From the IMG/VR virus record IMGVR_UViG_3300035146_000010: a stretch of 64,000 bases of DNA. One strand, written 5' to 3'. How positions within the stretch are numbered: position 1 is the first letter of the stretch; each line of letters opens with the position of its first letter. The translations under genes were made by a program, and so were the position numbers. This document shows positions 4,002-60,178 of the stretch, one piece after another. The notes below the pieces were generated by a model that was not told where the DNA came from, did no database searches, and saw only the letters and a list, made by a program, of their open reading frames with translations. Source of the DNA: a virus.

Positions 4002-4754
4002 ATGAACAACATAACTGATTATACGTATGCTGAAATAAACTATGATATTTGTTTTATTAAAAAAATAACTCCTTACCTTGATGATATAAAAGACAAAAAC
4101 GGAAGACCGTTAAGAAACAAAGCCCGTGCCTATGCCTGGTATTATGTTTTTAATAATAATATTAAGGCAGATGCTTATAGACGGGCCTACCATAGTAGAT
4201 ATAATCCTGAAACCGGAAAATTAGAAGAAATAATTAGAGGTGATTTGACAAAAAAAGAAGCGAAGGCCAGAAATGTTCGTATTTCAGTTAAGGCAAATGA
4301 GCTGCATTCTTACCCTTATATCCAGCAATGTGTAGAACTTATTGAAAAAGACCACATAAAAAAAATAAAAAAAACCTTACCGCAAAGTATGTTAGAACAA
4401 TTAGTTATACATGCCACCTACGATCCATCTATGTTTTTTACTCCGCGTGGAAGAGTGGCCTTTAAAACCTGGGAAGAAATACCGGAAAAATACCGGTGTT
4501 GTGTTGAAGGAATAGAAACAAGGGCATATGGAAAAGATGGAAATGTAAGAATATCTACAATAAAATTAGTTGATAGGGACAAGGCCCGGAAATATTTACT
4601 ACAAATTTGCCCCGGCCTGTTAGAAGCTGAAAAACATGAAATAATACATAAGACAATAGATGAAAACGGAGCAGTTGTTGGAATGGACGTAAAAAAACTT
4701 ACGGATGCAGAGTTAATTCAAAAATATCAGGAACTGAAGAACAGGGAGAAATAA
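4002..4754 (+). CDS. terS: Putative terminase small subunit
   Basis: N-terminal ARAYAWYYVF...ADAYRRA helix region and C-terminal KLVDRDKARKYLLQI segment resemble Terminase_2-type small subunits. This is pattern recall only. Confidence 0.45.
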   Translation: MNNITDYTYAEINYDICFIKKITPYLDDIKDKNGRPLRNKARAYAWYYVFNNNIKADAYRRAYHSRYNPETGKLEEIIRGDLTKKEAKARNVRISVKANELHSYPYIQQCVELIEKDHIKKIKKTLPQSMLEQLVIHATYDPSMFFTPRGRVAFKTWEEIPEKYRCCVEGIETRAYGKDGNVRISTIKLVDRDKARKYLLQICPGLLEAEKHEIIHKTIDENGAVVGMDVKKLTDAELIQKYQELKNREK

Positions 4755-4756
4755 AC

Positions 4757-5092
4757 ATGGAAACAGGCAGCATTGTGGCGTTGATTACATCCGGCTTTAC
4801 TATGCTGGGCGGGATATTAACAATAATGAAGGTGTTTAGCATGATACATAAAAAAGCAAAAGAGGAAGGACGCAAAGAAGAACAGTTTTGTGAAATTATT
4901 AAAGACGTGAACGGTTATGGTAAGAGATTATTAGAAGCTGAAAAAGATAATATGATAACAAAGAATAAAATAAATAAGCTTGAAAATGAAATATCTGCTA
5001 AGCTTGATGTTATCATTATTAAAACAGAGAGTACAGAAAAGAGAATGGACAGAATAGAAAATCATATATTTAATCAGGGAGAGAGAAAATGA
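4757..5092 (+). CDS. Membrane-anchored coiled-coil protein
   Basis: N-terminal hydrophobic helix (IVALITSGFTMLGGILTIMKVF) followed by a heptad-like charged region. Confidence 0.55.
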   Translation: METGSIVALITSGFTMLGGILTIMKVFSMIHKKAKEEGRKEEQFCEIIKDVNGYGKRLLEAEKDNMITKNKINKLENEISAKLDVIIIKTESTEKRMDRIENHIFNQGERK

Positions 5093-7483: not shown

Positions 7484-8005
7484 ATGATTAAATATAAAAA
7501 CATACAATTAAAATCAGTTTATGATTTAACACATTATTTAAAAAATATGTCGATAAAAGATAAATCATATTTATTTATTCGGGAGAATGAATATAAAATT
7601 GAAAGCACGATATGGGAAGAAATGTTTGAAATTTATCTAGAGACTATTCCGGTTGGTTTTGTGTATATCAATAAGCAAGTGGAACACCGTAAAGCTGTTA
7701 TTAATGGAATATATATTATTCCTGAATATAGAACCGCACATATTGCATTAATGGCAATGTTATGTGTTTGTGTTTATATTTTTAATTTTTTAGGATATAA
7801 TAAAATAGAATCATCTACAATCGAACATAATAGTCCCAGTTATGTGTTTCAGGATTCCTATATGAAAAAGGAAGGAACACAAATACAGTCATTGTATTAT
7901 CAAAGAAAGTTTTATGATCAAAGTCTCTTTGGTTTACGTTTGTTTGAGTTTGAAGAATTATTAGAAAAACATAAAATTAAATTAAGCGATGTTAGAATAA
8001 TATGA
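7484..8005 (+). CDS. GNAT-family acetyltransferase-like protein
   Basis: INGIYIIPEYR...ALMAMLCVCVYIFNFLGYNKIESSTIEHNSPS resembles the RimJ/RimL-type GNAT core. The stop overlaps the terL start. Confidence 0.4.
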   Translation: MIKYKNIQLKSVYDLTHYLKNMSIKDKSYLFIRENEYKIESTIWEEMFEIYLETIPVGFVYINKQVEHRKAVINGIYIIPEYRTAHIALMAMLCVCVYIFNFLGYNKIESSTIEHNSPSYVFQDSYMKKEGTQIQSLYYQRKFYDQSLFGLRLFEFEELLEKHKIKLSDVRII

Positions 8006-9507
8006 CAAGTGTAAATTCTATGATTGCCGGAGATTTTGCGGCACAAATGTATAGAGAGTTAGAAATGAGACAATTAGCACGGTCTCATTTAGCTCCCTTT
8101 ACGCAGTACCTGTTCCCCATGTATCAACTAACAGGGATACATAAAGAGTATGCACAAATATTAACATTGTTTGCGCGGGGAGAAATAAAAAAATTAATTA
8201 TTTCAATGCCGCCTCAGCATGGTAAATCAGAATTGTCTACTTTGCGACTTCCGGCATTTATGTTTGGACAGAATCCAAATTTAAAAGCTGCAATTGCTAG
8301 TTATAACGCAACAAAGGCACGGGGATTTAATACAAAGCTGCAACGGATCATTGCAGATCCATTATATTTTAATTTGTTCCCGGAAACAACTATCAGTAGT
8401 ACTCCTTTTAGCCAAAAGTCTAAAACGGGAATGAAGTTTCAAAGAAAACAAGAAGAATTTGAAATAATAAATTATCAGGGTAGTTGTAAAGCGGTGGGAA
8501 GAGGGGGAGCCCTTACCGGTGACCCGGTGGATTTAATCCTTATGGATGATTTATACAAAGATTATGCGGAAGGGAATAGTCCTGTTGTTCGGGAAACGGT
8601 AATTGATTGGTATACTGCGGTTGTTCGTACAAGACTGCATAACAATAGTCAGCAATTAATTGTTTTTACCCGGTGGAACGAAGAAGATTTAATTGGATTT
8701 ATAGAAAGGTCGGACGACGAAAAGGTTATTTTACTTACCGAAAAAACACAATTAAATAATATTGACATTGATGCCTGGTATAAAATTAATTTCCCTGCTC
8801 TTGCAACAAAAGAATCGGAATTAAATGAATTTGATGGAAGAAAAGAGGGTGAACCGTTATGGCCGGAAAGACATAGCCAAAAAAAATTAATAAACGATAG
8901 AAACTTAGACGAAGAAAAATTTGAGTCCCTACATCAAGGAGATCCGAAGCCTTCTAAAGGATTATTATATAAAGGATTTAATATTTACATAACTAAGCCG
9001 GCCTTTAAGTGGAGAAAAAATTATACAGACGTTGCCGACACGGGAAAAGATTATTTGTGTAGTATTTGCTATGAAGTCGGAGTAGACGACATGATATATA
9101 TTACTGATATTTATTATACAGACGAACCGCAGGATAAAACAGAAATTGAAACGGCCGAATTATTAGACCGGAACAAAGTTAATATTGCATATGTAGAAAG
9201 TAATGCCGGTGGCCGGGCCTTTGCAAGAAATGTAGACGGGTTTACAAAGGGCCGGCATGTGTTGGAAACATTTTATCAGGGAGACAATAAGGAAAGCCGG
9301 ATTATTTCTAATTCAGCAGCTATACAAAGAAAAATTTTATTTCCCATAAACTGGACTACGCGGTGGCCAGAATTTGCAAGGGACATATTACGATTTAAAA
9401 GAAATTTTAAAGCAAATTCACATGATGATGCACCGGACGCTTTAACAGGAGTTTATGAAAAAAGCGGGTTGGCTCCAATTGATACAAAATCATTGTGGAG
9501 AAAATAA
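8002..9507 (+). CDS. terL: Terminase large subunit
   Basis: Walker A-like MPPQHGKSE, Walker B LILMDDLY, and C-terminal nuclease motif SHDDAPDALTG. Confidence 0.9.
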   Translation: MTSVNSMIAGDFAAQMYRELEMRQLARSHLAPFTQYLFPMYQLTGIHKEYAQILTLFARGEIKKLIISMPPQHGKSELSTLRLPAFMFGQNPNLKAAIASYNATKARGFNTKLQRIIADPLYFNLFPETTISSTPFSQKSKTGMKFQRKQEEFEIINYQGSCKAVGRGGALTGDPVDLILMDDLYKDYAEGNSPVVRETVIDWYTAVVRTRLHNNSQQLIVFTRWNEEDLIGFIERSDDEKVILLTEKTQLNNIDIDAWYKINFPALATKESELNEFDGRKEGEPLWPERHSQKKLINDRNLDEEKFESLHQGDPKPSKGLLYKGFNIYITKPAFKWRKNYTDVADTGKDYLCSICYEVGVDDMIYITDIYYTDEPQDKTEIETAELLDRNKVNIAYVESNAGGRAFARNVDGFTKGRHVLETFYQGDNKESRIISNSAAIQRKILFPINWTTRWPEFARDILRFKRNFKANSHDDAPDALTGVYEKSGLAPIDTKSLWRK

Positions 9508-9509
9508 AA

Positions 9510-9692
9510 ATGGAAAATGAAAAACTATATAGAATAGAATTATATTATGCAGTATTCGGAATTGTAGTAAATGTAAAAGATAATATTATCGTAGATGCGC
9601 CCCCTATAGCGCGTTGGATGGTAGGAAAACCGTTAGCTAAAATTAAAGTTTGGGTTGATAAGAAAAACGGTACAATTACAAAGATAAAATAA
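9510..9692 (+). CDS. Hypothetical small protein
   Basis: ATG after GGAGAAAATAAAA. Product begins MENEKLYRIELYY. Confidence 0.5.
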   Translation: MENEKLYRIELYYAVFGIVVNVKDNIIVDAPPIARWMVGKPLAKIKVWVDKKNGTITKIK

Positions 9693-9703: not shown

Positions 9704-10351
9704 ATGAAATGTTTTTATTGTGGATCAAATTGTGATAAAAAATATTCAATAAAAGAATATGTAAAAAAAACGTTTACAAATTATGATATAGTGGCTTGTC
9801 CTGATTCTCAATATGTCTGTGATGATTGTGTTTGGGCATTTGGCAGCAATTCTGAAATACAAATGATAGATGGAGAAATTAGAAATGGAAGTCCCCGTAA
9901 TTATTCCTGGTTTATAACAAAAAATAAAAAAATAGCATTTACTAAAAAGCATATTGAGGAAATAAAATATTTATTATTTCATATCAAAAAAAAACCATTC
10001 AAATTAGTTATTGCAGATTCTGGACAAAAGCATTTATTATTTAGAGCTCCATGGAACTTTGATAAAAATAATTTTATATTGCAGTTTGAGGAACAACAAA
10101 TTATAGTTGATTTGAAGGAATTGGCAAAACGAATATTTATATGTAATAGACTAAGTGCTGCTATAGGAAAAGTAGCAATATTGAATCCTGATAAAGTACA
10201 ATATGCAATAGCTGTTCAAAAATACTGGAATGATTTAATTGAGTATGAGAAATGGCTCAAAATACATATGCAACCATTGTCACAGTTGGCGGTATGGTTA
10301 GCAAAAAATAAACAGGAGGCTCAAAATGAATATCAATCAGTTAACACCTGA
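9704..10351 (+). CDS. csf1: Csf1-like (type IV Cas8-like) protein with N-terminal Cys cluster
   Basis: CFYCGSNC...CPDSQYVCDDC zinc-finger-like N-terminus. About 215 aa. First gene of the csf1-cas11-cas7-cas5 order. Confidence 0.5.
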   Translation: MKCFYCGSNCDKKYSIKEYVKKTFTNYDIVACPDSQYVCDDCVWAFGSNSEIQMIDGEIRNGSPRNYSWFITKNKKIAFTKKHIEEIKYLLFHIKKKPFKLVIADSGQKHLLFRAPWNFDKNNFILQFEEQQIIVDLKELAKRIFICNRLSAAIGKVAILNPDKVQYAIAVQKYWNDLIEYEKWLKIHMQPLSQLAVWLAKNKQEAQNEYQSVNT

Positions 10352-10766
10352 AGAGTTCCGTTTAAAAATAGCAGGGCTATTGGACCCGCTGGGACAAATG
10401 GATGATTTGGGTAAAAAATCAATGGAAGATGAGGTTATAAGATTTGTATCAATATTGCCTGAAGTGTTTGGTGATAATTTGGACCGCAAAACACTATGGG
10501 AACGAATTGGCAATGGACTTGTTTCTTCATTGGCAAAAGCCGGTGGTGATGTTGAACTTTTTGTTAATCATTGTTTGGATTATGTTAAAGCAGATAGTGG
10601 TAAAGCTGCAGCAAATGAAAATTTACATTATTTTATTTCGACATTATCAACAAGAGATAAAGAATGGAAACAACAATTTCTACGTACAATTGAAAAAAAA
10701 CATTATCTTATTATTGTTAAATCCCGTGATACTTGGAATAAAAATAAAAAGGGAGGCACGAAATGA
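10326..10766 (+). CDS. cas11: Cas11-like small helical subunit
   Basis: 146-aa protein that reads as helical. Sits between the csf1-like and cas7-like genes and overlaps both neighbours. Confidence 0.4.
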   Translation: MNINQLTPEEFRLKIAGLLDPLGQMDDLGKKSMEDEVIRFVSILPEVFGDNLDRKTLWERIGNGLVSSLAKAGGDVELFVNHCLDYVKADSGKAAANENLHYFISTLSTRDKEWKQQFLRTIEKKHYLIIVKSRDTWNKNKKGGTK

Positions 10767-11707
10767 ATAAAACAGTAAGACCAAAAGTAAAACGTAGAAA
10801 AAAAGATATAGGAACAGTTAAAGTTCATTGTGTGTCTGAGACTTTGTCCCCATTAACGCACATGATGGAGACAGCTGGAAATGAGTCAATAATCAATAGG
10901 GAAAAGGTTATCCATAATGGTATGGAAAAATGGATACCTGTTTTGTCTGGAAATTCAATTCGTCATAAATTAATTCGTGATTCCGGTATGCATTATCTTC
11001 TTAATGCATGTAGCATGAGAAAGAAAATTGACATTAAACAGGCTAATTTTTTGTTTTATGGCGGTGGATTAACTGAAAGCAGCAACTCTGAGAAAATGAA
11101 AGAAATTGCCGAAATGTATGAATTGTTTCCACTTGTGAGGCTATTAGGGGCAAGTCTTCCGTGGCAAATAGTTGCAGGAAGTCTCATTGTGTTTCGCGGG
11201 AAATTAATTTGTGAAGAAAATAAACATTTTATTTATGAGTTATTGCCCGAAAAATTTGATATTGATTTGAATTGTCAACTGAAATCAAGTGAAGATTTTA
11301 TTCACGCATATCAATATACAAGAGGCGATATTACTCGACATAAGGATGTTGTTGAGATCGTTTCTCAAGATGAATTAGCATCGGATAAAAAAACCGGTTT
11401 AATGATTTATAACGGACAATGCATTATTACCGGATCATTATTTTATCACGGCTTTATCTTGAATAGAATATCGCGTAAAGAGGTCGGTGCCTTTTTTTTA
11501 TCTTTGGAAACATGGCAGGAATCCGGTGCGTTTCTTGGTGGCTATTCAAGAATTGGACATGGTAAATTGAAATTGAACGTCATGATCGAAGACAGCAAGG
11601 ATTTTATTTCCGCCAGCGATATTGACGACTGCATTGACGAATACATTAATCATGTTGAGGTTAATAAAGCCAAGTGTATCGAATGGCTTGATAAAAATTT
11701 TAAGTGA
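10763..11707 (+). CDS. csf2: Csf2 / Cas7-like RAMP protein
   Basis: IPVLSGNSIRHKLIRD (RAMP G-x-S-hR-G/H-xhR type motif) and C-terminal glycine loop GGYSRIGHGKL. ATGA overlap with the upstream gene. Confidence 0.7.
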   Translation: MNKTVRPKVKRRKKDIGTVKVHCVSETLSPLTHMMETAGNESIINREKVIHNGMEKWIPVLSGNSIRHKLIRDSGMHYLLNACSMRKKIDIKQANFLFYGGGLTESSNSEKMKEIAEMYELFPLVRLLGASLPWQIVAGSLIVFRGKLICEENKHFIYELLPEKFDIDLNCQLKSSEDFIHAYQYTRGDITRHKDVVEIVSQDELASDKKTGLMIYNGQCIITGSLFYHGFILNRISRKEVGAFFLSLETWQESGAFLGGYSRIGHGKLKLNVMIEDSKDFISASDIDDCIDEYINHVEVNKAKCIEWLDKNFK

Positions 11708-11715
11708 GGTCGTTT

Positions 11716-12396
11716 ATGGCAATAGAAAATTTTAAAGTAACGGCTTATTTGGTTGCACCAGTGGTGGGGGAAATACCACCACTGGACTCATTGTTGACTT
11801 ATCAGCTTGCATTTTATATGAATACATTCAAATCAAAAAAATATACAAAAGCAACACCTATAACTGAATTTGAACGTTTGCCGATACCGCTTACTGAATA
11901 TGATGTTGGAGGAGATAAAGTTAACTGTTGTTCTGATCCGGTTTATATAATTGAAACAGAATGGCATGATAAATTGGCAAAAAGATTTGAAACAGATATG
12001 CTTAGCACAATCATAGATCCACTAAAGAGAAAAACCATTAATATAGGGGGTGGGTATTTACGTTCAAGATTTCAGACGCTGCATGCTAAAATAATTAGTA
12101 GGGTGGTTTGGTTTGCTAGGGGGGACTCTGAGCAGGCATTACGATTATTGAAATATGTTAACTCGCTTGGTTATTTTAGAAAAATAGGATATGGTATTGT
12201 AAATAAATGGAATGTTGAAATAATAAAGGAAAATTTTTCAATATCCGCGCGGTGCTCCGGGAAAAAAATATTGATGAAGACTCTGCCTGTTTGTGATGCT
12301 ACTCGAAACATGGACGGTATTCGTTATGGATTTGGTGCATACAAACCACCCTACTGGCATCCAGAAAATCAGTGTGAGGTTGTGGTTCCATGTTAA
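11716..12396 (+). CDS. csf3: Csf3 / Cas5-like RAMP protein
   Basis: N-terminal VAPVVGEIPPLDSLLTYQLAF and C-terminal LGYFRKIGYGIVNKW glycine loop. ATG with GAGG RBS. Confidence 0.6.
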   Translation: MAIENFKVTAYLVAPVVGEIPPLDSLLTYQLAFYMNTFKSKKYTKATPITEFERLPIPLTEYDVGGDKVNCCSDPVYIIETEWHDKLAKRFETDMLSTIIDPLKRKTINIGGGYLRSRFQTLHAKIISRVVWFARGDSEQALRLLKYVNSLGYFRKIGYGIVNKWNVEIIKENFSISARCSGKKILMKTLPVCDATRNMDGIRYGFGAYKPPYWHPENQCEVVVPC

Positions 12397-12935
12397 ATGG
12401 TTATTATATAATACAACAATACGCAAATGTGATTCAGGATTATCCATTGTTTTTTACTTTTGCTAAAAAAAATAAATTATGGAAGTATATTTATCCACAC
12501 TATAGGTGGGACGTGTTGCAAATTATAGCACTTGTTTGCCTGTCTCCTGGAACTCTAAATGAAAAATATAATTTTTTACAAAGAGAACTTTATTATTTTT
12601 ATAATAAAATTGTTTGTACTTTTCATTTAAAAAAGAAAAATAAATGCAAACAAAAAAGGAGTATACCAAAACATAAAAATCATTGCGATATTTGTGGAAA
12701 AGATAAATTAGAATATATGACTAAATCATTATTTCCTGGAAAAAAAGTTTGTAATTATTGTTATATGCAGCATAAGCGCAAGTATGTGAATAAATATTAT
12801 GGGCGTCTGATAAAAACATGTGAATTATGTGGAAAAGAAACAAGAACAGGATTATATACAAGTGTTTTTCCTGGAAAAAAAGTTTGTATGAGCTGCTATC
12901 AAAAAGAAATGTATAGAAGGAAAAAAAAAAAATGA
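12390..12935 (+). CDS. Protein with two tandem zinc-ribbon units
   Basis: Repeated C..CGK-x(n)-FPGKKVC..CY units. Start overlaps the csf3 stop (ATGTTAA). Confidence 0.6.
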   Translation: MLNGYYIIQQYANVIQDYPLFFTFAKKNKLWKYIYPHYRWDVLQIIALVCLSPGTLNEKYNFLQRELYYFYNKIVCTFHLKKKNKCKQKRSIPKHKNHCDICGKDKLEYMTKSLFPGKKVCNYCYMQHKRKYVNKYYGRLIKTCELCGKETRTGLYTSVFPGKKVCMSCYQKEMYRRKKKK

Positions 12936-13345
12936 GAGTGGTTTTATATAATGTTGGACGTAATTTAAATCGTGCATATCGTACTTGTTTTAGTTTTGGA
13001 ATTGAAAAATTAATTTTAGTAAATTCACAGGATATAAGTATAAAATGGGAATTGAAAGGAAATCTGTTTGAAGCAAAAAATAAAGTTAAAATAATAGAAA
13101 CTAACATGATGCCATTGATTGATATGCATACAATTGCACTCGAAAATTATTATAAACAATCTATATATAATATCACATGGAACAATCTTGATACTATACT
13201 GATAGGTGGAGAAACGAAAGGGCTCCCTAAATTGATTAGTTGCCAGAAAGCAACAATACCAACAATCAATAATTTTTGTTTGACAGTAGAGGCATCATTA
13301 GCAATTGCCCTGTCGGAATGGAGACGAAATGTTAATACAGTGTGA
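12932..13345 (+). CDS. Minimal SPOUT (SpoU/TrmH/TrmL-like) RNA methyltransferase
   Basis: MRVVLYNVGRNLNRAYRTCFSFGIEKLILV and ILIGGETKGLP...ATIPTINNFCLTVEASLAIALSEW match the N- and C-terminal blocks of TrmL-type enzymes as I recall them. Confidence 0.6.
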   Translation: MRVVLYNVGRNLNRAYRTCFSFGIEKLILVNSQDISIKWELKGNLFEAKNKVKIIETNMMPLIDMHTIALENYYKQSIYNITWNNLDTILIGGETKGLPKLISCQKATIPTINNFCLTVEASLAIALSEWRRNVNTV

Positions 13346-14042
13346 CAAGCATACACAACAGGATTTAGAAATTTGGGATAGTTATGAGGAAGCCGATTTG
13401 ATTTATTATAATAATCATAATATGGTGGAAAAAGAACAAAAAGCTATTGATACTATTATCAATTTTGATAGTGATTATGTTAGTACTTCATGGGGCAAGG
13501 ACTCAACTGTTTTGGTGCATTTGTGTTATAGGGCACAAATTAAAATACCATTGGTGTGGATTATTGTTAAAGATATTGTAAATCCTTATTGTTTTGATGT
13601 TAGAAATTATTTTTTAAAAACTTATAATGTTAATTATTATGAGATAACCGAAAGCAGGTGGTATGATGGTAATCGCTATAGGGCCACAGGTGTTTTAGAA
13701 AATGGTTTTAAAAAAGCAGTTAAACAATTTGGAAAAAAATATATATCCGGTGTACGTGCTGAAGAGTCTGGAATAAGAAAAATGTTAACAAAAATTTATG
13801 GTGTAAAGACAGAAAAAACCTGCCGTCCGTTGGCATATTGGAAACAATCAGATATTTTTGCCTATTTGGCTCATTATCAATTGCCGGTTCATCCAAATTA
13901 CGGGATGTTGGGTGGTGGGAGATATAACCGTGAACATATACGGGTTGCTTCATTGGGCATTAAAAGAGGCGATGCTTTTGATAAATTGCTATGGGAAAAA
14001 GAATACTATCAAAATGAATTAAACAAAATTGGAGGAATATAA
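13329..14042 (+). CDS. CysH-like PAPS-reductase family PP-loop protein
   Basis: STSWGKDSTVLVHLC (PP-loop variant), ISGVRAEESGIRK, and CRPLAYWKQSDIFAYL. ATG after GGAGACGAA. Confidence 0.75.
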   Translation: MLIQCDKHTQQDLEIWDSYEEADLIYYNNHNMVEKEQKAIDTIINFDSDYVSTSWGKDSTVLVHLCYRAQIKIPLVWIIVKDIVNPYCFDVRNYFLKTYNVNYYEITESRWYDGNRYRATGVLENGFKKAVKQFGKKYISGVRAEESGIRKMLTKIYGVKTEKTCRPLAYWKQSDIFAYLAHYQLPVHPNYGMLGGGRYNREHIRVASLGIKRGDAFDKLLWEKEYYQNELNKIGGI

Positions 14043-14043
14043 A

Positions 14044-15285
14044 ATGGTAATGGAAGCACTGCGCACAGACGGCTGGTCAAATTTAATTGCCGGTATCGGT
14101 GTAAAGAAAAAAGATAAAACAGAAAATACATATTTTGTTGAAGATTATATTTTGGAAGATGAAGACTTGTCCGCGTTGTATGATGGAGAAGGACTGGCGG
14201 CAAATATAATTGATGCTGTACCGGATGATATGACACGGGCCGGGTGGACAATAGCAAATGACGAAAAAGAAAAAATACAAAATGAAATGAAAAGGATTAA
14301 AGCGGTATATTATTTAAACAAGGCATTAAAATATGCCCGTCTATATCGTGGGGCTATTGTTGTTATGATTACAGAGCGGGGAGAATTAGACAAGCCTATA
14401 CCGGCTAATCCTGGAAATGTAAAACGCCTGCGTGTATATTCTGCAAAAAGAATAATATTAACATCAACTGATATTGTAGAAGATCCGAATTCAGAATATT
14501 TTGATGACGTTGAAATATTTCATGTTTTAACCCGTTCCGGGAAAATGCTAGATATACATAGATCGCGTTGTTTGTGGTTTGGAGGCGAACTTGTATCTGA
14601 TGATTTTGAATTAGATCTTACCTATCAATATTGGGGACTGTCTACAATGCAAAGAATATGGGCCCGGTTAAAAAATTACGGAGCAGTGGAAAGGGCTGTT
14701 GCAAATTTGCTTTTGGAGTTTAATTTGGGGATATATGAATTTTCTAATTTAGCTGAAATATTAGCTATGAATAAAGAAGAAATGATGAGTGCTGTATACA
14801 CACGGTTAGAAGCTATAAACGCATGCAAGTCTATGTTAAACGCTGTTATGATCGGTGAAGGGGAGTCTTTTACAAGGGACTCTGCGAACCTGTCCGGTTT
14901 AGCGGACATTATAGATAGAATGATGATTAATTTAACCGGTGTTGCAAAGATCCCGGCAACTAAATTATTTCGGCGATCTCCTGCGGGAATGAATGCGACA
15001 GGCGAAAGCGATATAACTAACTATTATGATGATGTGAGTACACAACAGACACAAAAACTTGAACCGGAACTGCAAAAATTAATTAATGTAATCGGAAAAG
15101 CTGTTTATGGCAGCAACAAAGAAAATAAATATACAATTACTTTTAATTCTTTGTGGGAGCCGACTGAAAAAGAAAAAGCCGAAACAAAAAAATTAAATGC
15201 GGAAACACATTCAACTGATATTGCAAATCAAGTTATAGATGCGGAAGAGTCTCGTAAAATAAGGTATCCAGATTTGGAGGTATAG
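14044..15285 (+). CDS. Portal protein (DUF1073-like)
   Basis: N-terminal RTDGWSNLIAGIG..KKDK...LSALYDGEGLAANII..VPDDMTRAGW pattern. Size and position relative to terL also fit. Confidence 0.75.
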   Translation: MVMEALRTDGWSNLIAGIGVKKKDKTENTYFVEDYILEDEDLSALYDGEGLAANIIDAVPDDMTRAGWTIANDEKEKIQNEMKRIKAVYYLNKALKYARLYRGAIVVMITERGELDKPIPANPGNVKRLRVYSAKRIILTSTDIVEDPNSEYFDDVEIFHVLTRSGKMLDIHRSRCLWFGGELVSDDFELDLTYQYWGLSTMQRIWARLKNYGAVERAVANLLLEFNLGIYEFSNLAEILAMNKEEMMSAVYTRLEAINACKSMLNAVMIGEGESFTRDSANLSGLADIIDRMMINLTGVAKIPATKLFRRSPAGMNATGESDITNYYDDVSTQQTQKLEPELQKLINVIGKAVYGSNKENKYTITFNSLWEPTEKEKAETKKLNAETHSTDIANQVIDAEESRKIRYPDLEV

Positions 15286-15286
15286 C

Positions 15287-15508
15287 ATGTTTACTGTTTT
15301 ATTTATGATTTTTCTTTTGGGAATAGGTCTATTGTGGTCTATTAGAAAATGCTTATTATTAGAAAAAGAAGTAGTTCAAATTCATAAGGCAATAAGAGAA
15401 TCAATGGAAATTATGGCACATGGGCCCGTGGATGTTTCGTCTTTAAATGCGAATACAGAATACTTGAAAGAGAAACTTAAAAAGGACAAAAATGACAGAC
15501 ATAAATAA
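15287..15508 (+). CDS. Small membrane protein
   Basis: N-terminal hydrophobic helix. 73 aa. Confidence 0.45.
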   Translation: MFTVLFMIFLLGIGLLWSIRKCLLLEKEVVQIHKAIRESMEIMAHGPVDVSSLNANTEYLKEKLKKDKNDRHK

Positions 15509-16517
15509 AAAATTATTTTTAGAATTATTAAAATTAAAAAGAAAAGAAATGGGGCCCGGAAACAGGGCAAGGTCCAAAAATCCCGTAAAAGGAATTAATT
15601 GGATTTATCCGTTTTCTGTTGAGCGCAAATATGCAAAATGGCTACAGTCTATGATGCAACAGATTATTGAACCGGCTACAGAATTTGTCCGGGCGAATGT
15701 CGGAAACTGGATAAAGGAATATGCAGAAATGACGGCAGACGCCTATCCCGGTGATTTAAGAGTCAATATTGAAGATATTGAAAAAACGCTAAAGCAGATA
15801 TATGAAGAGAGGGGCGAAGAAGTCCGAACACTGATTGCAGATTTTGGATTTCAGGTATCCGGGCAAAATATACAACAATGGAAAAAATTTACAAAAAAAG
15901 TTTTGGGAGTGGAGTTTGTAATAACAGAGCCCTGGGAAATTGAAATAATAAAAGCCTGGGCGGAAGATAATTTCACATTGGTAAAATCCTTATCACAGGA
16001 ATATATAAAAAAAGTTAATACAATAGTTTCTGAAGCAGTAACGACAGGCCGGACAGCTGGGTATTTAGTTAAACAGCCGACATTCAAAGAAATAGAACAA
16101 GGAGTTTTTAGAAAGCTTAAAAAATGGAATAAGAATTATGCGGAATACCGGACAAGACTTATTGCACGGGATCAAGTAGGAAAATTACAAGGACAGTTTA
16201 CCCAGCGCAGGCAGGAAGACGCCGGAATAGATTCTTATTTTTGGGTAACTGCCGGGGATGAACGAGTCCGGGGAAATCCGGCCGGCCCGTGGAAAAATGC
16301 TGTTCCGTCCCACTACATTATGAGCGGTGTATTGTGTCGTTGGGATAATGTTACGTTGTATTCTGAAAATAACGGGAAGACGTGGAAAAAAAGAAAGGCG
16401 AAAATGCCGAAAGCACATCCGGGACAAGAAATACAGTGTCGTTGTTCCGCTATTCCAAATATGATAGATCTAGTCGAACAAGTTGATAAATTAATTGAAA
16501 ATGAAAAAGCAGCATAA
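15492..16517 (+). CDS. Head morphogenesis protein (Mu F / SPP1 gp7 family)
   Basis: YFWVTAGDERVRGNP...HPGQEIQCRCSAIP C-terminal motif. Follows the portal gene. Confidence 0.75.
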   Translation: MTDINKKLFLELLKLKRKEMGPGNRARSKNPVKGINWIYPFSVERKYAKWLQSMMQQIIEPATEFVRANVGNWIKEYAEMTADAYPGDLRVNIEDIEKTLKQIYEERGEEVRTLIADFGFQVSGQNIQQWKKFTKKVLGVEFVITEPWEIEIIKAWAEDNFTLVKSLSQEYIKKVNTIVSEAVTTGRTAGYLVKQPTFKEIEQGVFRKLKKWNKNYAEYRTRLIARDQVGKLQGQFTQRRQEDAGIDSYFWVTAGDERVRGNPAGPWKNAVPSHYIMSGVLCRWDNVTLYSENNGKTWKKRKAKMPKAHPGQEIQCRCSAIPNMIDLVEQVDKLIENEKAA

Positions 16518-18477: not shown

Positions 18478-18483
18478 AAAAAG

Positions 18484-18512
18484 TTTCCTTTTTCAATTTA
18501 AAAACGTATAAT
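18484..18512 (+). promoter_or_regulatory. Class B promoter (TTTCCT-17-TATAAT)
   Basis: aaaaaagtttcctttttcaatttaaaaaNgtataatataa is nearly identical at 58456-58497 and similar at 49510-49547. Confidence 0.6.
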
Positions 18513-18643
18513 ATAAGTAAATGGCAACTGTGAAATTAAAATTGGAGGTGATGTCTATTGGATTAAAATAAAACTATAAATTACATACTAACACTTTGTG
18601 TATAAGATTTTAAGATTTTAGTACTTGATGACTCTATGCAGAT

Positions 18644-18737
18644 AGCCGGGTGGCGGAAGTGGAAGACGCGCCAAGGGATTGCCTTGGTGGGGGTAATAAC
18701 AAATAACTCCGTGCAGGTTCGATTCCTGCCCCGGCAA
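18644..18737 (+). tRNA. Class II (long variable arm, Leu-like) tRNA scaffold with a non-canonical anticodon loop
   Basis: Canonical elements: U8, D-arm GCGG-AAGUGGAAGA-CGC with G18G19, and T-arm GCAGG-UUCGAUU-CCUGC. The variable arm has a 5-bp stem. The acceptor is GCCGGG/CCCGGC with an A/A at positions 1-72, followed by A. The anticodon stem CCAAG/CUUGG closes the loop GGAUUGC, which lacks U33. Confidence 0.55.
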
Positions 18738-18861
18738 AGAAAAGTCCAACCGTAGCTGGTCATTGCGGATATGGCTATTAGTACCGGTACTTGTCCGGAA
18801 CAAGTTGCTAGTAAGAAAATAAAAACCTAGACCCGCTTTTTACTTTCGATTTAAACCAGTG

Positions 18862-18906
18862 TTGTTGCAGAGGGTGTTCTTGCCGGTTCGAGTCCGGCAG
18901 CAACAA
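18862..18906 (+). ncRNA. Acceptor-stem/T-arm minihelix (tRNA 3'-half-like element)
   Basis: 7-bp stem ttgttgc/gcaacaa enclosing a 13-nt linker and a perfect T-arm gccgg-ttcgagt-ccggc. No D or anticodon arm. Confidence 0.45.
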
Positions 18907-18941
18907 ATGAGGCGAAAGTCTCCAATTTTAACTTTGTTTTT

Positions 18942-19027
18942 TGTGTCTCCCGGTTAGTTCTGCACACACTAACCCTAGTAAGTTCCGATCAAAAACATTT
19001 TCAAATTTCTACTGACCGGGAGACACA
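18942..19027 (+). ncRNA. Long-range stem (about 17 bp) with a competing internal hairpin, upstream of gene 19055
   Basis: gtgtctcccggt (18943-18954) is perfectly complementary to accgggagacac (19015-19026), and pairing extends on both sides. There is an internal ggttag...ctaacc hairpin. Confidence 0.45.
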
Positions 19028-19054
19028 CACTTAAAAATAATAAAGGATAAATAA

Positions 19055-37149: not shown

Positions 37150-38559
37150 ATGGCATATACAACAATTAGTCCGCCTGATTTTGATCCGGCAACCAGTTTA
37201 AATTTAACTGACATTTTATGGGCAATGCAGGGAGTAGCAGCGGACAGGGACAAACAAGTTCCATTATCTCTACTAAAAGAATTTATCAACACAGACATAA
37301 CGTTGACCGGAACAATGATTCACGGGCCGGGCAATTATACAGTTTCTACTCAGGCCGGATTTAATGAACTGATAGAACGAACTGCCGCGAATACATATAA
37401 ACTTAAAGACGAAGTAATTACAATAAAATTAAAATACTTGTCTGGCGGTTATTTGTGTTATGGCGGGACTTCTTATTTATCGGACGGCGATACCTGGGGA
37501 GTATTGCAGACAAATAATTGTACCCGGTTTGAAATAGAAGACGGCGGGCATTTAGCAGTCGGGGACGAACCATTTCAATTATATATAGAAGAGGGCGGTT
37601 ACTTTAAAGTTCCATGTGAGGGGATAGGCTCAGCCGCTTTTTCTGCAACTGATACTAGTAGTCATTTTTTCTGTGCAAATAGTGGTATAGTATTAGATCA
37701 ATGTTCAGTAAAAAATCGGCTTGTTGAAGCGGACACTATTTATAGAATTTTTCATGGTAACGTGCAAGATAATTGTCTTTTTAGAAATTGTTTTGTTCAA
37801 AATTTTAATAGTGATGCTGCCTCTGTTTTTGGTGTAGTTGTTTTTAGTCGTTGTTTTTCTGTTAATGGTTGTTGGGCAGATACTATTTCTACTGGTGCTT
37901 ATCAGCTTGAGATTTTTGCAGAATCTGGATATTTAAATAATACTAGAGCAACAAATATTTCTGGAACAGGAAATGGTGACATATTCGTTTATCATGATAA
38001 TATTGTTATTGCTGGAGCATATGTAAAAAATATTATAAATTCAACAGGCAGCGGAAATGTTTCTGGATTTTATCAATGTGATCAAATATCTGCTTGTCAA
38101 ATACAAACAATAGAAGCATATTCTGGTTCCATTTACTGTTTTTATGCATGTGATCAAATATCTGCTTGTTTTGTAGACGATGCAGAAACAGTAGACGGAA
38201 CTATTTATGGATATCAGGGTTGTAATCAAATTTCTGCGTGTAAAGCAAGTACTTTTGTCAGTACTGGAACTGGTCTTATTTTTGGATATAGACTATGTTA
38301 TGCACTATCGTCTTGCAAAGCTACAAGTTTTCAATCAAATTCTGGAAATGTATATGGATTTTATGAATGTCATGATATGGCAGCATTAATCACAACATTA
38401 TTGAGTTCTACTTCTGGTACAGTTAATGGATATTATAATTGTACTGAAGGAGCAGCGTTTGAAACAGATGTGGGAACAAATAGTGCCAATGATTATATGG
38501 ATACTGCAGACACAAATGTTACAAATAAAAATTCAATACAAGATATTTTTACAACATAA
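37150..38559 (+). CDS. Tail fiber / receptor-binding protein with C-terminal Cys-containing repeats
   Basis: Last gene of the tail module. Contains repeated G.(I/V)YGFY.C.QISAC units. Confidence 0.6.
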   Translation: MAYTTISPPDFDPATSLNLTDILWAMQGVAADRDKQVPLSLLKEFINTDITLTGTMIHGPGNYTVSTQAGFNELIERTAANTYKLKDEVITIKLKYLSGGYLCYGGTSYLSDGDTWGVLQTNNCTRFEIEDGGHLAVGDEPFQLYIEEGGYFKVPCEGIGSAAFSATDTSSHFFCANSGIVLDQCSVKNRLVEADTIYRIFHGNVQDNCLFRNCFVQNFNSDAASVFGVVVFSRCFSVNGCWADTISTGAYQLEIFAESGYLNNTRATNISGTGNGDIFVYHDNIVIAGAYVKNIINSTGSGNVSGFYQCDQISACQIQTIEAYSGSIYCFYACDQISACFVDDAETVDGTIYGYQGCNQISACKASTFVSTGTGLIFGYRLCYALSSCKATSFQSNSGNVYGFYECHDMAALITTLLSSTSGTVNGYYNCTEGAAFETDVGTNSANDYMDTADTNVTNKNSIQDIFTT

Positions 38560-39321: not shown

Positions 39322-39407
39322 TTTAGACCTCCAATTTTAATTTTTGTCCTGTCTCTTCAGTGCCGGGTGGACAGTTCCGGCAGACGCCCATAAGGGCGTT
39401 TCGACTT

Positions 39408-49573: not shown

Positions 49574-50173
49574 ATGAAAAAACAAATAATTGCAGCAATT
49601 AAGGATATTTCAGAGCTGGGAGTGGATTTTGATATATCGCTGGATGAAGCTGAAAAATATGGCGAGGATGTTTTGATTGCAGAATTGGAAGAGGCGGCTG
49701 TCATTTTGGAAGACGGCGACAAATTACAAAAATCTACAGTTGATACTTTTACAGAATTGGAAATTGATATACCGGCAGGAATAAAAATTGTCCCGTCTAA
49801 AAAACCAGTTACCAAAAAACCGGTTTCCAATAAAAAATCTAAAAAGCAAAAAAAAGCACCGATTAAAAAATCTAAAAAAAATGAAAAACCAAAATCTGCA
49901 AAACCAAAAACAGATAAAAAAGAAATTAAAAAATCCCAAAAAAATAAATACCGAAAAAAAAGCAGTGATTTGAGTAATGAACTGGCAAAACTTTTAGAAG
50001 AGGCAGATTACACACAAAAAGAAATCAGGGAGGAGTTGTTTGATCGTTTTGATGGAAAGATACCAAAAAAAAGAATTTCTGATTTGCTTTCCTGTGTGAA
50101 AAACCCTAAATATAATATTTTTGATAATTTGGTTGTTATTGATGATGATGGGATAATGAAATTTGAAAAGTGA
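49574..50173 (+). CDS. Lys-rich protein (acidic N-terminus, poly-basic middle)
   Basis: 199-aa ORF with the consensus RBS. Confidence 0.55.
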   Translation: MKKQIIAAIKDISELGVDFDISLDEAEKYGEDVLIAELEEAAVILEDGDKLQKSTVDTFTELEIDIPAGIKIVPSKKPVTKKPVSNKKSKKQKKAPIKKSKKNEKPKSAKPKTDKKEIKKSQKNKYRKKSSDLSNELAKLLEEADYTQKEIREELFDRFDGKIPKKRISDLLSCVKNPKYNIFDNLVVIDDDGIMKFEK

Positions 50174-51227
50174 ATATGATTATATTTGGCATTTAAAAAA
50201 TGCTGACTTTAAAAAAGATAAGGGAAAAGTTTTTTCCGGTTTTGCTGGTGGTGGCGGTTCAACAATGGGATATAAACTAGCTGGGTTTGATGTTATTGGA
50301 TTTAATGAAGTGGATAAAAAAATGGCTGAATGTTATATTCAAAATCACAATCCAAAATATTCATATGTAGAACCAATACAAAAATTTAAAATTAGAAATA
50401 ATCTGCCTGATGCTTTATATGATCTTGATATATTAGACGGCAGTCCGCCATGCTCTTCTTTTTCTATTGCCGGCAATCGGCATAGGGATTGGGGCAAAGA
50501 AAAACAATTTAGAGAGGGAATGGAAAAGCAAATCCTTGATACATTGTTTTTTGATTTTATTGACTTGGCAAAAAAATTACAATCAAAAGTTGTAGTGGCT
50601 GAAAATGTTCATGGTATTTTGCTTGGCATGGCAAAAAAATATATGAAAAATATATTGTATGCATTTGATGCAGCTAATTATTTTGTTGATTTTAAATTAT
50701 TGGATTCTTCTTTGATGGGAGTTCCTCAAGTTCGGCGGCGTGTTATATTTTATGCAATACGGAAAGATTTGATTAAAAATATTAAACATACTGGCATGCA
50801 TATAAAAAAACCGGTACTGGATTTAGATTTTAATTTTGATACGATTTTTTTTGAAAAAATAATGGATGAAAATGGAGACAAAATAACAAAACATAATTAT
50901 GATATTTGGAAACATAGAAAATATGGGGAAAAGGTTATGTTTCGCACTAAAAAAAGAATTGGAATGAAAGCAAGTAATTTTCCATTGCAATATGTTTACA
51001 AAGAAAATGTTATGCCAGTTATACCGTCTACCGGGAAAAACGCATTGTGTTTGTTTCATAAACCTTTAAAGGTTAGTGAAACTGAAATTATAAAAGGATC
51101 AACGTTTCCATTAGATTATAATTTTTGCAATGCAAATATTAATTATGTGTGTGGGATGTCTGTTCCACCTGTTATGATGGCAAATATATCAAAAAGGATT
51201 TATGATCAATGGCTGAAGAATATATAG
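50163..51227 (+). CDS. DNA (cytosine-5)-methyltransferase
   Basis: FSGFAGGGGS (motif I), DGSPPCSSFS (IV), AENV (VI), QVRRRVIF (VIII), GMSVPP (X). The apparent start is a TTG. Confidence 0.85.
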   Translation: MKSEYDYIWHLKNADFKKDKGKVFSGFAGGGGSTMGYKLAGFDVIGFNEVDKKMAECYIQNHNPKYSYVEPIQKFKIRNNLPDALYDLDILDGSPPCSSFSIAGNRHRDWGKEKQFREGMEKQILDTLFFDFIDLAKKLQSKVVVAENVHGILLGMAKKYMKNILYAFDAANYFVDFKLLDSSLMGVPQVRRRVIFYAIRKDLIKNIKHTGMHIKKPVLDLDFNFDTIFFEKIMDENGDKITKHNYDIWKHRKYGEKVMFRTKKRIGMKASNFPLQYVYKENVMPVIPSTGKNALCLFHKPLKVSETEIIKGSTFPLDYNFCNANINYVCGMSVPPVMMANISKRIYDQWLKNI

Positions 51228-59088: not shown

Positions 59089-60178
59089 AAAAGGCAAAAA
59101 AAAAGGTAGTGTGAGTGATGCTCTCCGGAAGAGTGTAGACAACAGTGTAGAGGAAAGAAGCTCTGAGGGAACCGGATACGGAATTTTAAATTTTTCCAAT
59201 TTGGATGTGAGTACTGATGAACTGCCTTTTTTTAAACCGAATAAAGGGAAAAACAGAATTGATGTGATCCCGTTTTGGGTAGAAACAGATAAACATCCGT
59301 CTGAAAGCGCCCGAAAAAATGGGGCAGATTATCGGATAAATGTTCATGTACATAAAGGCCTGGGCCCGGATAGAAACAAAACGTTGATCTGTCTGGAAGA
59401 AACGTATGGTAAACCATGTCCTGTTTGTGAAAAAAGACGAAAATTGCAGGAACAGGGAGCGAGTGCAGATTTAATTAAGATGTTAAAACCACAGTACCGG
59501 GTTTTGTACAATGTGATAGATTTGGACAATGAGGAAAAAGGGATTCAAATTATGGATGTTGCCTATTACTCATTTGAGAGGAATATTGTGGATGATGTTA
59601 CTGACGGAAAAAAGGGACGGATATATTTTCCTGATCTGGAAAATGGAAGTACAATTATTTTTAAAGCAAAACCCAGTAAATTTCAAGGTCATTCTTTTAT
59701 GAAAATTCTGGAAGGGAGTTTTGCTCTGGAAGATCGGGAAGAGGCTTATGAAGAATCTATTGTTGATGAAGCTTTTAAACTGGATGAAATGCTTATTGTT
59801 CCCACATATGAAGAAGCTAAAAAATTGGTTAATATGGTATCAGATGAAGATATGGATGAAGACGAAGATGATGATGATTGGGATGATGATGACGATAACG
59901 AAGTAGAGGAAGAAGAAGACGATTTTGATGATGACGATGATGATTGGGATGATGATGACGAAGATGATTATGACGATGATGATGATTGGGATGATGATGA
60001 CGATAACGAAGTAGAGGAAGAAGAAGACGATTTTGATGATGACGATGATGATGAAATAGAGGAAGAGCCCAAAAAATCGGTTAAACGCAAAAAGTCAACA
60101 ACTGAAAAAAAGACGAAAAAACCGGCAAAAACAAAAAGCATAAAATCTAAAAAGACGAAAACCAGGAATAGAAAATGA
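59069..60178 (+). CDS. gp32-like ssDNA-binding protein with a long acidic repeat tail and a basic end
   Basis: Zinc site H...CPVCEKRRK, OB-like core, and a DDDDWDDDDDNEVEEEEDDFDDDDDD duplication. ATG after AAGGAG. Confidence 0.65.
   Translation: MTKKRNKKGKKKGSVSDALRKSVDNSVEERSSEGTGYGILNFSNLDVSTDELPFFKPNKGKNRIDVIPFWVETDKHPSESARKNGADYRINVHVHKGLGPDRNKTLICLEETYGKPCPVCEKRRKLQEQGASADLIKMLKPQYRVLYNVIDLDNEEKGIQIMDVAYYSFERNIVDDVTDGKKGRIYFPDLENGSTIIFKAKPSKFQGHSFMKILEGSFALEDREEAYEESIVDEAFKLDEMLIVPTYEEAKKLVNMVSDEDMDEDEDDDDWDDDDDNEVEEEEDDFDDDDDDWDDDDEDDYDDDDDWDDDDDNEVEEEEDDFDDDDDDEIEEEPKKSVKRKKSTTEKKTKKPAKTKSIKSKKTKTRNRK
59870..60053 (+). repeat. 108-nt-period direct duplication inside the SSB acidic tail
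   Basis: gatgatgattgggatgatgatgacgataacgaagtagaggaagaagaagacgattttgatgatgacgatgatgat occurs at 59870 and again at 59978. Confidence 0.85.

Follow-up and report, generated by a model that had tools for sequence, protein, structure and literature searches.

What does a CRISPR effector complex do when a phage carries it among its packaging genes without a CRISPR array? The question is raised by positions 9704–14042 of IMG/VR virus record IMGVR_UViG_3300035146_000010, which was analyzed as a window of 64,000 nt out of a 65,406-bp phage contig (all positions are numbered within this window). To judge from its gene content, the region is an intact subtype IV-B effector module, in which csf1, cas11, csf2 (cas7), and csf3 (cas5) are accompanied by a cysH-like gene, together with two extra accessory genes, here genes 5 and 6, that are the most informative parts of the locus. 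Subtype IV-B is the one long-known subtype to which no function has been given: none is offered in recent reviews (PMC8175902; PMC11656645, 2024), the 2025 classification update infers one only by analogy with type IV-A (PMC12669027), and the cysH-like neighbor has been the sole clue until now. Phage carriage of type IV-B is already known, with occurrences reported on phages, prophages, and archaeal viruses (PMC7038947, PMC10848311, PMC11656645). The new part of this locus is a dedicated family of SPOUT proteins in IV-B-like modules. Restricted to such modules, located near the cysH-like gene, and repeatedly fused to phosphatases, this family provides a second, sharper clue, which points toward RNA over DNA. 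The explanation that we find probable on balance is that the Csf complex encoded by the phage binds RNA and that the accessory enzymes modify this RNA.

A type IV-B Csf core without an array

The seven open reading frames (ORFs) of the module, as listed with their translations, are intact and occupy the + strand between terL, which encodes the large terminase subunit, and the portal gene. Neighboring ORFs overlap by 4–41 nt or, with the alternative ATG starts that the JGI gene caller chose on the identical contig L001 (related loci are cited by our own numbers), are spaced by no more than about 10 nt; an 11-nt gap precedes csf1, the first gene. An earlier inspection of the DNA, hereafter the original prediction, had described seven coupled + strand genes between the terminase and portal genes, and their coordinates, strand, overlaps, and flanking genes were all confirmed. 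Its gene-by-gene account stood for genes 1–4 and 7, and had missed the SPOUT protein (gene 6) and the zinc-ribbon protein (gene 5).

Type IV profiles of the PADLOC collection match genes 1–4 over nearly the full length of each. Gene 1, csf1 (9704–10351, +; 215 aa), encodes the Cas8-like large subunit (typeIV_Cas8 PDLC01574, E = 9.9e-63, residues 2–210) with an N-terminal Cys4 zinc cluster, the previously noticed CFYCGSNC...CPDSQYVCDDC. Gene 2 (10326–10766, +), listed earlier as a 146-aa ORF, is identified by profile search as cas11, the small subunit (typeIV_Cas11 PDLC01570, E = 2.7e-44; PDLC01573, E = 4.1e-38). Gene 3, csf2/cas7 (10763–11707, +; 314 aa), encodes the backbone RAMP subunit (typeIV_Cas7, E = 8e-84) and contains the motif SGNSIRHKLIRD and the stretch GGYSRIGHGKL on which its Cas7 assignment had been based. 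Gene 4, csf3/cas5 (11704–12396, +; 230 aa; start at GTG 11704 or ATG 11716), shows both expected motifs, PPLDSLLTYQLAF and LGYFRKIGYGIV, and matches typeIV_Cas5 PDLC01727 (E = 1e-32, residues 7–229) and PHROG phrog_34599 (E = 5e-30). Because four independent type IV profiles match four consecutive genes in the canonical order, at E-values from 1e-32 to 8e-84, this order of Csf genes is far beyond chance. The profile search named beforehand as a check of the original prediction accordingly recovered Csf1, Cas11, Csf2/Cas7, and Csf3/Cas5 in genes 1–4, in order and with a cysH-like neighbor, as expected of a subtype IV-B-like module. A csf1 homolog is equally placed in 46 of the 54 compared loci, and the cas11 of related loci is always flanked by csf1 and cas7.

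Other collections respond more faintly. Csf1 matches NCBIfam TIGR03114 (cas8u_csf1) at E = 3.6e-12 and Cas5 matches TIGR03116 at E = 6.7e-8, in both cases under the cutoff, which for TIGR03114 is curated; the cas5 gene of L001, as called by JGI on the identical contig, has a weak match to PF27782 (Csf3). A Pfam-A search of genes 1–4 yielded no matches, and neither did single-sequence searches of the PDB with Csf1, Cas11, and Cas5, which are too divergent for an informative outcome.

The structure comparison proposed as a further check gave a clear result for gene 3. An AlphaFold2 (AF2) monomer model of Cas7, built from an alignment of 29 homologs (pLDDT 86.1, pTM 0.83), was searched against the PDB with Foldseek, and its predicted fold matches the solved type IV-A Csf2 best (7xg0_D, E = 2.3e-13, TM 0.62), then type IV-B Cas7 (7jhy_a, E = 4.3e-9, target TM 0.71), and then type III Csm3. 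In a search of PDB sequences, the Cas7 profile found the type IV-B Csf2 of 7jhy (E = 1.9e-8) and no IV-A Csf2 at E-values up to 1. The 29 homologs share 53 invariant columns, among them GNE..IN.E and SGN..RH. The GNE..IN.E stretch falls in a low-confidence loop of the model (residues 35–40) that, by alignment, would be the counterpart of the Asp42-bearing “catalytic loop” of Mycobacterium Csf2 (PMC7937560).

The top PDB sequence match of the Cas7 profile was a “Cas7c” entry, 11fs (E = 4.6e-15, full length, 330 aa). The “Cas7c” entries 11fs, 11hc, and 11hd have 7 chains each and are absent from the Foldseek library; the name is generic in the literature, and 11fs may come from a type IV-like complex that was solved only recently and is relevant to this family. 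Inside the 5′ end of cas5, a perfect 10-bp G+C-rich hairpin (11758–11785, +; CCAGTGGTGG...CCACCACTGG; about −21 kcal/mol) stands out from a genome of 33% G+C. L007 has a 9-bp hairpin of different sequence at the homologous cas5 codons, and five other homologs fold weakly there; the hairpin could be a by-product of Pro/Gly codons or a regulatory or binding element.

No CRISPR array was found in the 64 kb with Tandem Repeats Finder, a search for spaced direct repeats, or a k-mer chain scan. Scans for other cas genes covered 32 window proteins, namely the 7 of the module and 25 others from larger ORFs; Cas6, DinG, Cas10, Cas1, and Cas2 had no match among them, and no convincing Cas3 was seen among the larger ORFs, in line with the array-less state originally claimed. 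No helicase of the DinG or RecD type lies in or beside the module, and the helicase of the replication module, 29 kb away, has generic SF2 matches only. With csf1–cas11–csf2–csf3 and a cysH-like gene, and without array, cas6, helicase, or adaptation genes, the locus therefore falls under the definition of subtype IV-B (PMC7038947, PMC8175902, PMC12669027).

A candidate mini-array, consisting of 30-nt repeats at 38068 and 38140, was rejected as lying inside a repetitive tail-fiber-like coding region; the protein encoded there (38068–38169) has a reiterated G(F/Y)Y.C..IS.C motif that is the source of the false array-like repeat. The remaining short repeats were rejected as solitary CRISPR repeats, being low-complexity or operator-like.

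A module that lacks an array, adaptation genes, and a nuclease, and whose NCBIfam equivalog scores stay under the cutoff, might be taken for a decaying or non-functional CRISPR remnant picked up by the phage. This is very improbable, given that all seven ORFs are intact and overlapping, that an identical copy of the module is present in L001, which comes from a separate sequencing run, and that homologs at 35–66% identity keep the 53 invariant Cas7 columns, with the gene order preserved across dozens of contigs.

Plasmid-borne IV-B modules (Mycobacterium sp. JS623, PDB 7JHY, PMC7937560; Rhodococcus; Thermococcus nautili) have the same csf1–cas11–csf2–csf3–cysH-like order and likewise lack an array, cas6, helicase, and adaptation genes. 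The Cas7 of 7JHY matches that of the window in fold and sequence, although window and plasmid Cas7 proteins are only 23–29% identical, and the plasmid CysH-like protein resembles gene 7 in having a PP-loop and no catalytic cysteine (PMC8175902). Unlike the plasmid modules, the module described here is carried by a tailed phage, at a morphogenesis-operon site, and has zinc-ribbon and SPOUT genes between cas5 and the cysH-like gene. In the nearest plasmid relative, that of Thermococcus nautili, two hypothetical proteins take the places of csf1 and cas11, beside a RAMP protein, an annotated Cas6 in the place of cas5, and a PAPS reductase. Viral carriers of Csf1–Cas11–Cas7–Cas5 with a CysH-like protein include the “Fuxiviridae” viruses of Bathyarchaeia (PMC10848311) as well as prophages and lytic phages (PMC7038947, PMC11656645), which resemble the window also in having no adaptation module; the Fuxivirus has a two-repeat mini-array and an archaeal host, whereas the window phage has no array and a large terminase subunit (TerL) nearest to those of Bacteroides and Porphyromonas phages. 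Type IV-A (PDB 7XG0, 8RC3) shares homologous Csf1 and Cas5 and the best-matching Cas7 fold (TM about 0.62) and differs in its array, Cas6/Csf5, DinG, DNA-target silencing, and mostly absent Cas11; array, Cas6, and DinG were not found in the window.

The combination of an array-less, nuclease-less, phage-borne module with a retained and conserved Cas5, the usual binder of the CRISPR RNA (crRNA) handle, fits an idea already published for IV-B (PMC7038947, PMC8175902), that of a guide-RNA sponge with which the Csf complex would soak up host crRNAs or other guides and so disarm RNA-guided immunity; IV-B presence is, moreover, negatively correlated with other CRISPR systems (PMC7038947). We regard such an anti-CRISPR role as distinctly unlikely here. 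In the Mycobacterium IV-B complex, the RNA on which the Cas7 and Cas11 subunits form a type III-like filament is heterogeneous and of one uniform length; co-expressed I-E crRNAs were not taken up (PMC7937560). A late packaging-operon site would be the wrong timing for an anti-CRISPR, a sponge would have no need for a PP-loop enzyme, an RNA methyltransferase, phosphatases, or radical SAM enzymes, and the authors of PMC7038947 themselves deem the idea unlikely.

A SPOUT family within IV-B-like modules

Gene 6 (12932–13345, +; 137 aa) matches the Pfam SpoU_methylase profile (PF00588) with 31.8 bits, over the gathering cutoff of 29.7. Its family keeps three SPOUT motifs (N..R..R...FG, IGGE.G.P, and LTVEA.LAI), and the family profile finds in the PDB the TrmH Gm18 methyltransferases 7edc and 1zjr at E about 5e-5 and the TrmL/YibK structures 1j85 and 7d51 at E about 2e-3. 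The product is predicted to be a minimal SPOUT (SpoU/TrmH-TrmL-like) RNA ribose 2′-O-methyltransferase. TrmH and TrmL (YibK) contain the same three-motif SPOUT domain, which in TrmL makes up a protein of about 160 aa; gene 6 differs from both in being very divergent and in belonging to an isolated family, embedded in IV-B-like modules and sometimes fused to phosphatases. This family comprises 37 proteins among 5.8 billion, or 70 representative clusters among 1.84 billion (E up to 1e-3), and ordinary TrmL and TrmH are not among the matches. The substrate of SPOUT enzymes is tRNA or rRNA, apart from one enzyme that is known to act on a protein (PMC9508554).

When loci were seeded with the SPOUT gene only, type IV Cas7/Cas5 and/or cysH-like genes were present beside it in 42/42 loci (9/9 IMG/VR viral loci, 30/30 metagenome loci, and 3/3 context look-ups). 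These scans were pattern-based and reach relatives that share the seed motifs, so that the association is exclusive in the sense of 42/42 within that reach. Such linkage to type IV Cas7/Cas5 genes argues that the SPOUT protein is coupled, physically or functionally, to the Csf complex. The SPOUT-seeded loci include lineages whose Cas7 is too divergent for the Cas7 scan, and two gene orders recur, Cas7–Cas5–SPOUT–CysH, as in the window, and Cas7–CysH–SPOUT–Cas5.

Fusions extend the picture. SPOUT domains precede or follow a Cys-phosphatase domain whose (H/F)Cx5R motif is intact in P0122, P0134, P0145, P0151, and P0124, and are joined to a HAD-type phosphatase domain in P0138 and P0118 and to a zinc finger in P0119. 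By Rosetta-stone reasoning, the SPOUT–phosphatase fusions link 2′-O-methylation with dephosphorylation; in L066 and L067, a stand-alone phosphatase gene adjoins the SPOUT gene or lies near it.

Three IV-B-like relatives that bear both SPOUT and CysH carry CRISPR arrays with 37-nt repeats. L066, a contig of a Chloroflexi metagenome-assembled genome (MAG; RFGV01000537.1), has two arrays (174–660 and 4343–4962), Cas6, and a Cys-phosphatase gene; in L085, a 15-repeat array (17–1106) lies upstream of Csf1, a Cas11–Cas7 fusion, Cas5, SPOUT, and CysH; and in L098 the array (994–1258) directly follows CysH. Guide capacity therefore exists in the lineage, and these relatives offer a natural source of guide RNAs for experiments. 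None of the 29 spacers (0/29) matches the window or any locus compared.

In the openly searchable literature, with subscription-only texts outside its reach, no link was found between SPOUT/SpoU/TrmH genes and type IV CRISPR. For IV-B, a survey of CRISPR-linked genes names CysH and an ADP-ribosyltransferase and no others (bioRxiv 10.1101/270033), and PMC7038947 makes no mention of a methyltransferase.

Among solved structures, gene 6 is closest to the tRNA 2′-O-methyltransferases TrmH and TrmL, which would also fit a role apart from any Csf-bound RNA: the enzyme could modify tRNA or rRNA, for example shielding anticodon loops from ribotoxins, with the Csf complex acting separately or as a scaffold. 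Weak matches of gene 7 to PP-loop enzymes such as TilS and TtcA lean the same way, and T4 Pnkp/Rnl1 sets a precedent for phage action against anticodon nucleases. Such a role is nonetheless decidedly unlikely for a SPOUT family that is never away from type IV Cas7/Cas5 and/or cysH-like genes in the 42 SPOUT-seeded loci, and in 31 related loci no tRNA genes occur up to about 8 kb from the module.

Between cas5 and the SPOUT gene lies gene 5 (12390–12935, +; 181 aa), which encodes a helical/zinc-ribbon accessory protein in which an N-terminal helical domain of about 80 aa is joined by a basic, lysine-rich linker to two CxxC...CxxC zinc ribbons; its Pfam matches to zinc ribbons are weak (Prok-RING_2 and zf-dskA_traR, E about 0.01–0.06). 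Only 3 homologs were found among 5.8 billion proteins, two of them with a single ribbon and the third being the shorter gene call of the same contig. Homologs occupy the same slot, between cas5 and SPOUT, in L007/L014, L056, and L057/L058, and in L068 a 170-aa ORF in this slot is, by position, a candidate counterpart. The AF2 model of gene 5 (pLDDT 73.5) had no structural match in Foldseek (best E = 0.32).

The CysH-like protein and the proposed RNA substrate

Gene 7 (13305–14042, +; 245 aa; start at TTG 13305 or ATG 13329) encodes a cysH-like, CasCysH-type protein of the PP-loop ATP-pyrophosphatase fold. It matches Pfam PAPS_reduct (E = 6.4e-11; 43 bits versus a cutoff of 22.5) and, in the PDB, the PAPS reductase structures 6vpu and 1sur (E = 5e-4 to 3e-3), and the motifs SWGKDSTVLVHLC, GVRAEESGIRK, and PLAYWKQSDIFAYL from which it had been assigned to the PAPS_reduct/PP-loop family are all present. 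In an alignment of 35 homologs from related loci, SWGKDS and G.R..ES..R are conserved at a level of at least 90%, and no conserved C-terminal cysteine of the ECGLH-type motif was found. The PAPS/APS reductase equivalogs are failed by a wide margin (PRK02090, 42.8 versus 154 bits; TIGR00434, 24.5 versus 165). Lacking a conserved catalytic cysteine and scoring far under these cutoffs, gene 7 is CysH-like and not a sulfate-assimilation enzyme. Its alignment fits the published CasCysH signature, in which the ATP alpha-hydrolase/PP-motif is retained and sulfonucleotide reduction is lost (PMC8175902).

Under the explanation that we prefer, Csf1, Cas5, several Cas7 subunits, and Cas11 would assemble on RNA not derived from an array of the phage's own and would form a type III-like filament, by analogy with the Mycobacterium complex. 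The nuclease-less Csf complex would then serve as a platform or specificity factor for RNA-modifying enzymes: the CysH-like PP-loop protein would activate a substrate by adenylylation, the SPOUT enzyme would methylate the ribose 2′-OH, and a phosphoesterase of the Cys, HAD, or HD type would, in relatives, trim a phosphate. DNA has no 2′-OH, and a SPOUT partner that methylates this group argues for RNA rather than DNA as the substrate. Transcription of the module probably takes place late, together with the packaging genes, and we conjecture that it probably aids the phage against host defenses or rival elements that act through RNA.

Several observations weigh against this explanation. Genes 1, 3, and 4 do not pass the NCBIfam equivalogs for Csf1, Csf2, and Csf3 (TIGR03114–03116), scoring 46.4, 41.9, and 32.4 bits against cutoffs of 140, 130, and 140; such a cutoff is an annotation threshold and not a defining trait of subtype IV-B, and the far better fit of the PADLOC profiles suggests that this divergent clade lies outside the range of the NCBIfam models. 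There is no phosphatase in the window. The SPOUT gene is present in only about 10% of Cas7-seeded viral modules (5/38 loci, 3 distinct), so that methylation cannot be essential to IV-B in general. Late expression would follow from gene order alone, and the CysH-like and SPOUT proteins, taken here to act on the RNA bound by Csf, may instead have tRNA, rRNA, or a small molecule as their substrate. Furthermore, the PAPS_reduct/DUF3440 and ParB_N companions found in other loci fit a DNA-directed role better, gene 7 has a weak match to BrxP (E = 3e-5), and the CysH family also holds DNA-modifying enzymes, namely DndC (phosphorothioation) and BrxP of BREX.

These last three points would suit RNA-guided marking or silencing of DNA, in which the complex borrows a guide and the CysH-like protein modifies DNA, either marking phage DNA at packaging or silencing a competitor. 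The module adjoins terL or portal in the window, L007, L018, and L068, array-bearing relatives exist, and type IV-A silences DNA targets (PMC11656645), all of which agree with such a role. Even so, we hold it to be unlikely. The dedicated partner is a predicted ribose 2′-O-methyltransferase, for which DNA offers no 2′-OH; neither a DinG nor a RecD helicase accompanies the module; and its position varies, adjoining PolA and replication genes in L002, L020, and L039. Gene 7 also lacks the catalytic cysteine on which sulfur chemistry depends (gene 7 alignment; PMC8175902).

Modification of Csf-bound RNA, which we prefer, can be taken further, to a tentative and rather unlikely generalization: phage IV-B modules might be CRISPR-derived RNA-modification machines, whose Cas7/Cas11 filament would hold a guide or substrate RNA and present defined riboses or RNA ends to a methyltransferase and an adenylylating enzyme, joined in relatives by a phosphatase or a radical SAM enzyme. 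If this were true, they would be a viral counterpart of guide-directed 2′-O-methylation by box C/D ribonucleoproteins, or of Pnkp/Hen1-type repair, deployed against RNA-cleaving or RNA-guided host defenses, and the array-bearing L066, L085, and L098 would be programmable RNA-modifying CRISPR systems. Phages use Pnkp/Rnl1-type RNA repair against host ribotoxins. The analogy with Pnkp/Hen1 and T4 Pnkp/Rnl1 lies in the pairing of a phosphoesterase with an adenylylating enzyme, joined in one case by the 2′-O-methyltransferase Hen1, with RNA ends as the target; it is one of domain content, and homology is lacking, as Hen1 has a Rossmann fold, the ligases are not PP-loop proteins, and no kinase or ligase was detected in the window module. 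Should RNA modification prove right, it would be a new biochemical output of a CRISPR effector and possibly a programmable RNA-modifying tool; should it prove wrong, the locus, a compact phage system of seven genes, would still lend itself to working out the function of IV-B.

Related modules and the carrier phage

A Cas7 scan of IMG/VR retrieved 38 viral contigs with related modules, nearly all of the csf1–cas11–cas7–cas5 type, and a cysH-like gene was present within the fetched flank in 30 of the 38. In 6/8 contigs without a cysH-like gene, a radical SAM gene takes its place; radical SAM genes (PF04055) downstream of cas5, with no cysH-like gene, were seen in L008, L009, L010, L022, L026, L029, and L043, accompanied in L009, L029, and L043 by a gene for a B12-binding domain. 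Recurrent additions to the viral modules are a PAPS_reduct/DUF3440 plus ParB_N pair, a small helix-turn-helix protein, and an HD-domain protein. The pair is located between cas5 and the cysH-like gene in L002 (6782–8535) and L054 (5512–7220), and also in L023, L024, L030, and L036, its PAPS_reduct+DUF3440 member being a second, distinct PAPS-reductase-family gene in the same cassette. In L013, the slot between cas5 and cysH is taken by the HD-domain gene, and in L019 by its cluster-mate.

The site of the module differs among relatives. It lies between the portal and MuF genes in L007/L014, L018, and L068, with a MuF homolog directly 3′ of the module in L007, L018, and L068; L007/L014 and L068 are close relatives by TerL (E = 1e-199 for L007/L014). 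Given this variation in genome position, which includes the replication-gene sites named above, the module behaves as a mobile accessory cassette.

In L054 (7385–14658) and L056 (5971–12789), whose Cas7 proteins are 66% and 53% identical to that of the window, the module is followed by a sugar biosynthesis cluster of the nonulosonic-acid type, with NeuB, a DegT aminotransferase, an epimerase/dehydratase, a GFO_IDH_MocA oxidoreductase, and an acetyltransferase. The L054 cluster has an additional faint CMP-transferase-like match; such cargo is unusual for a phage.

The window is nearly the whole genome, roughly 65 kb, of a tailed phage, and its flanking and distal phage genes bear out the original placement of the module inside a packaging and morphogenesis gene block. 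The upstream boundary is terL (8002–9507, +; Pfam Terminase_6N, E = 7.5e-8; Terminase-T7_RNaseH-like, E = 6e-6), and the downstream boundary is the portal gene (14029–15285, +; Phage_portal_3, E = 1.6e-85; probable start ATG 14044; JGI call on L001). Between terL and csf1, a small ORF (9495–9692, +; 65 aa), perhaps outside the module, has no family match and no similarity to the equally placed small ORF of the related phage L068. A MuF-like head morphogenesis protein (15492–16517, +) is indicated by a faint match of the identical L001 gene to PF04233 (Phage_Mu_F). Further phage genes encode a prohead protease, a major capsid protein (phrog_264), DnaB, RecA, a fusion of a uracil-DNA glycosylase (UDG) with PolA (54848–57391), a helicase–N6/N4 methyltransferase fusion (51209–53458), and a C5 DNA methyltransferase (50163–51227). 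Two of these fusions are unusual: the family-A DNA polymerase with an N-terminal UDG-superfamily domain, an architecture that recurs in L002, L020, and L039, and the SF2 helicase joined to an N6/N4 DNA methyltransferase. No integrase was found among the ORFs scanned, in a scan that was not exhaustive. As no Cas7 homolog was found in 50,697 GenBank phage records, no cultured model phage was found for the module.

The host is probably bacterial and possibly belongs to the Bacteroidota, to judge from sequence comparisons. The best tblastn matches of TerL are Bacteroides fragilis siphophages (46% identity) and Porphyromonas phages (44%), and all 12 GTDB contigs with a related Cas7 (12/12) belong to bacterial genomes or MAGs. 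Matches of the major capsid protein are scattered over phages of several bacterial phyla. An identical Cas7 protein has been deposited as “MAG: Nitrosopumilaceae archaeon”. With a TerL of the Bacteroides/Porphyromonas kind, RecA, DnaB, and PolA of bacterial type, and bacterial GTDB relatives of Cas7, this archaeal label is, with moderate confidence, a probable binning artifact.

The overlaps that run from terL through the module to portal suggest late co-transcription with the packaging genes. Counts from a sigma-70 promoter scan and from a search for the Bacteroidota-type pattern TTTG...TAnnTTTG were no higher than in shuffled sequences, and no terminator-like site stands out before 20157.

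Two non-coding stretches carry structured elements. In the 580-nt stretch at 18478–19054, a tRNA-like element (18645–18735, +) is reported by ARAGORN as “tRNA-Asn(att)” of 96 nt and scores 23 bits, under threshold, with the Rfam tRNA-Sec model; its acceptor and T arms are perfect, its variable arm is long, and its anticodon loop is aberrant, and a second T-arm-like hairpin follows at about 18868–18905. Since tRNAs are absent near the module in the 31 related loci, this element was not linked to the module. The other is a 570-nt gap with a minus-strand gene on either side, within the single block (38.6–41.9 kb) where phage genes run on the minus strand; it contains a type II hammerhead ribozyme (39343–39406, −; Rfam RF02276, 40.7 bits versus a gathering cutoff of 37), with 58% G+C in surroundings of about 30%. 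Finally, a long Asp/Glu-rich repeat with a 108-nt unit (59843–60054) lies within the gene for a 396-aa protein.

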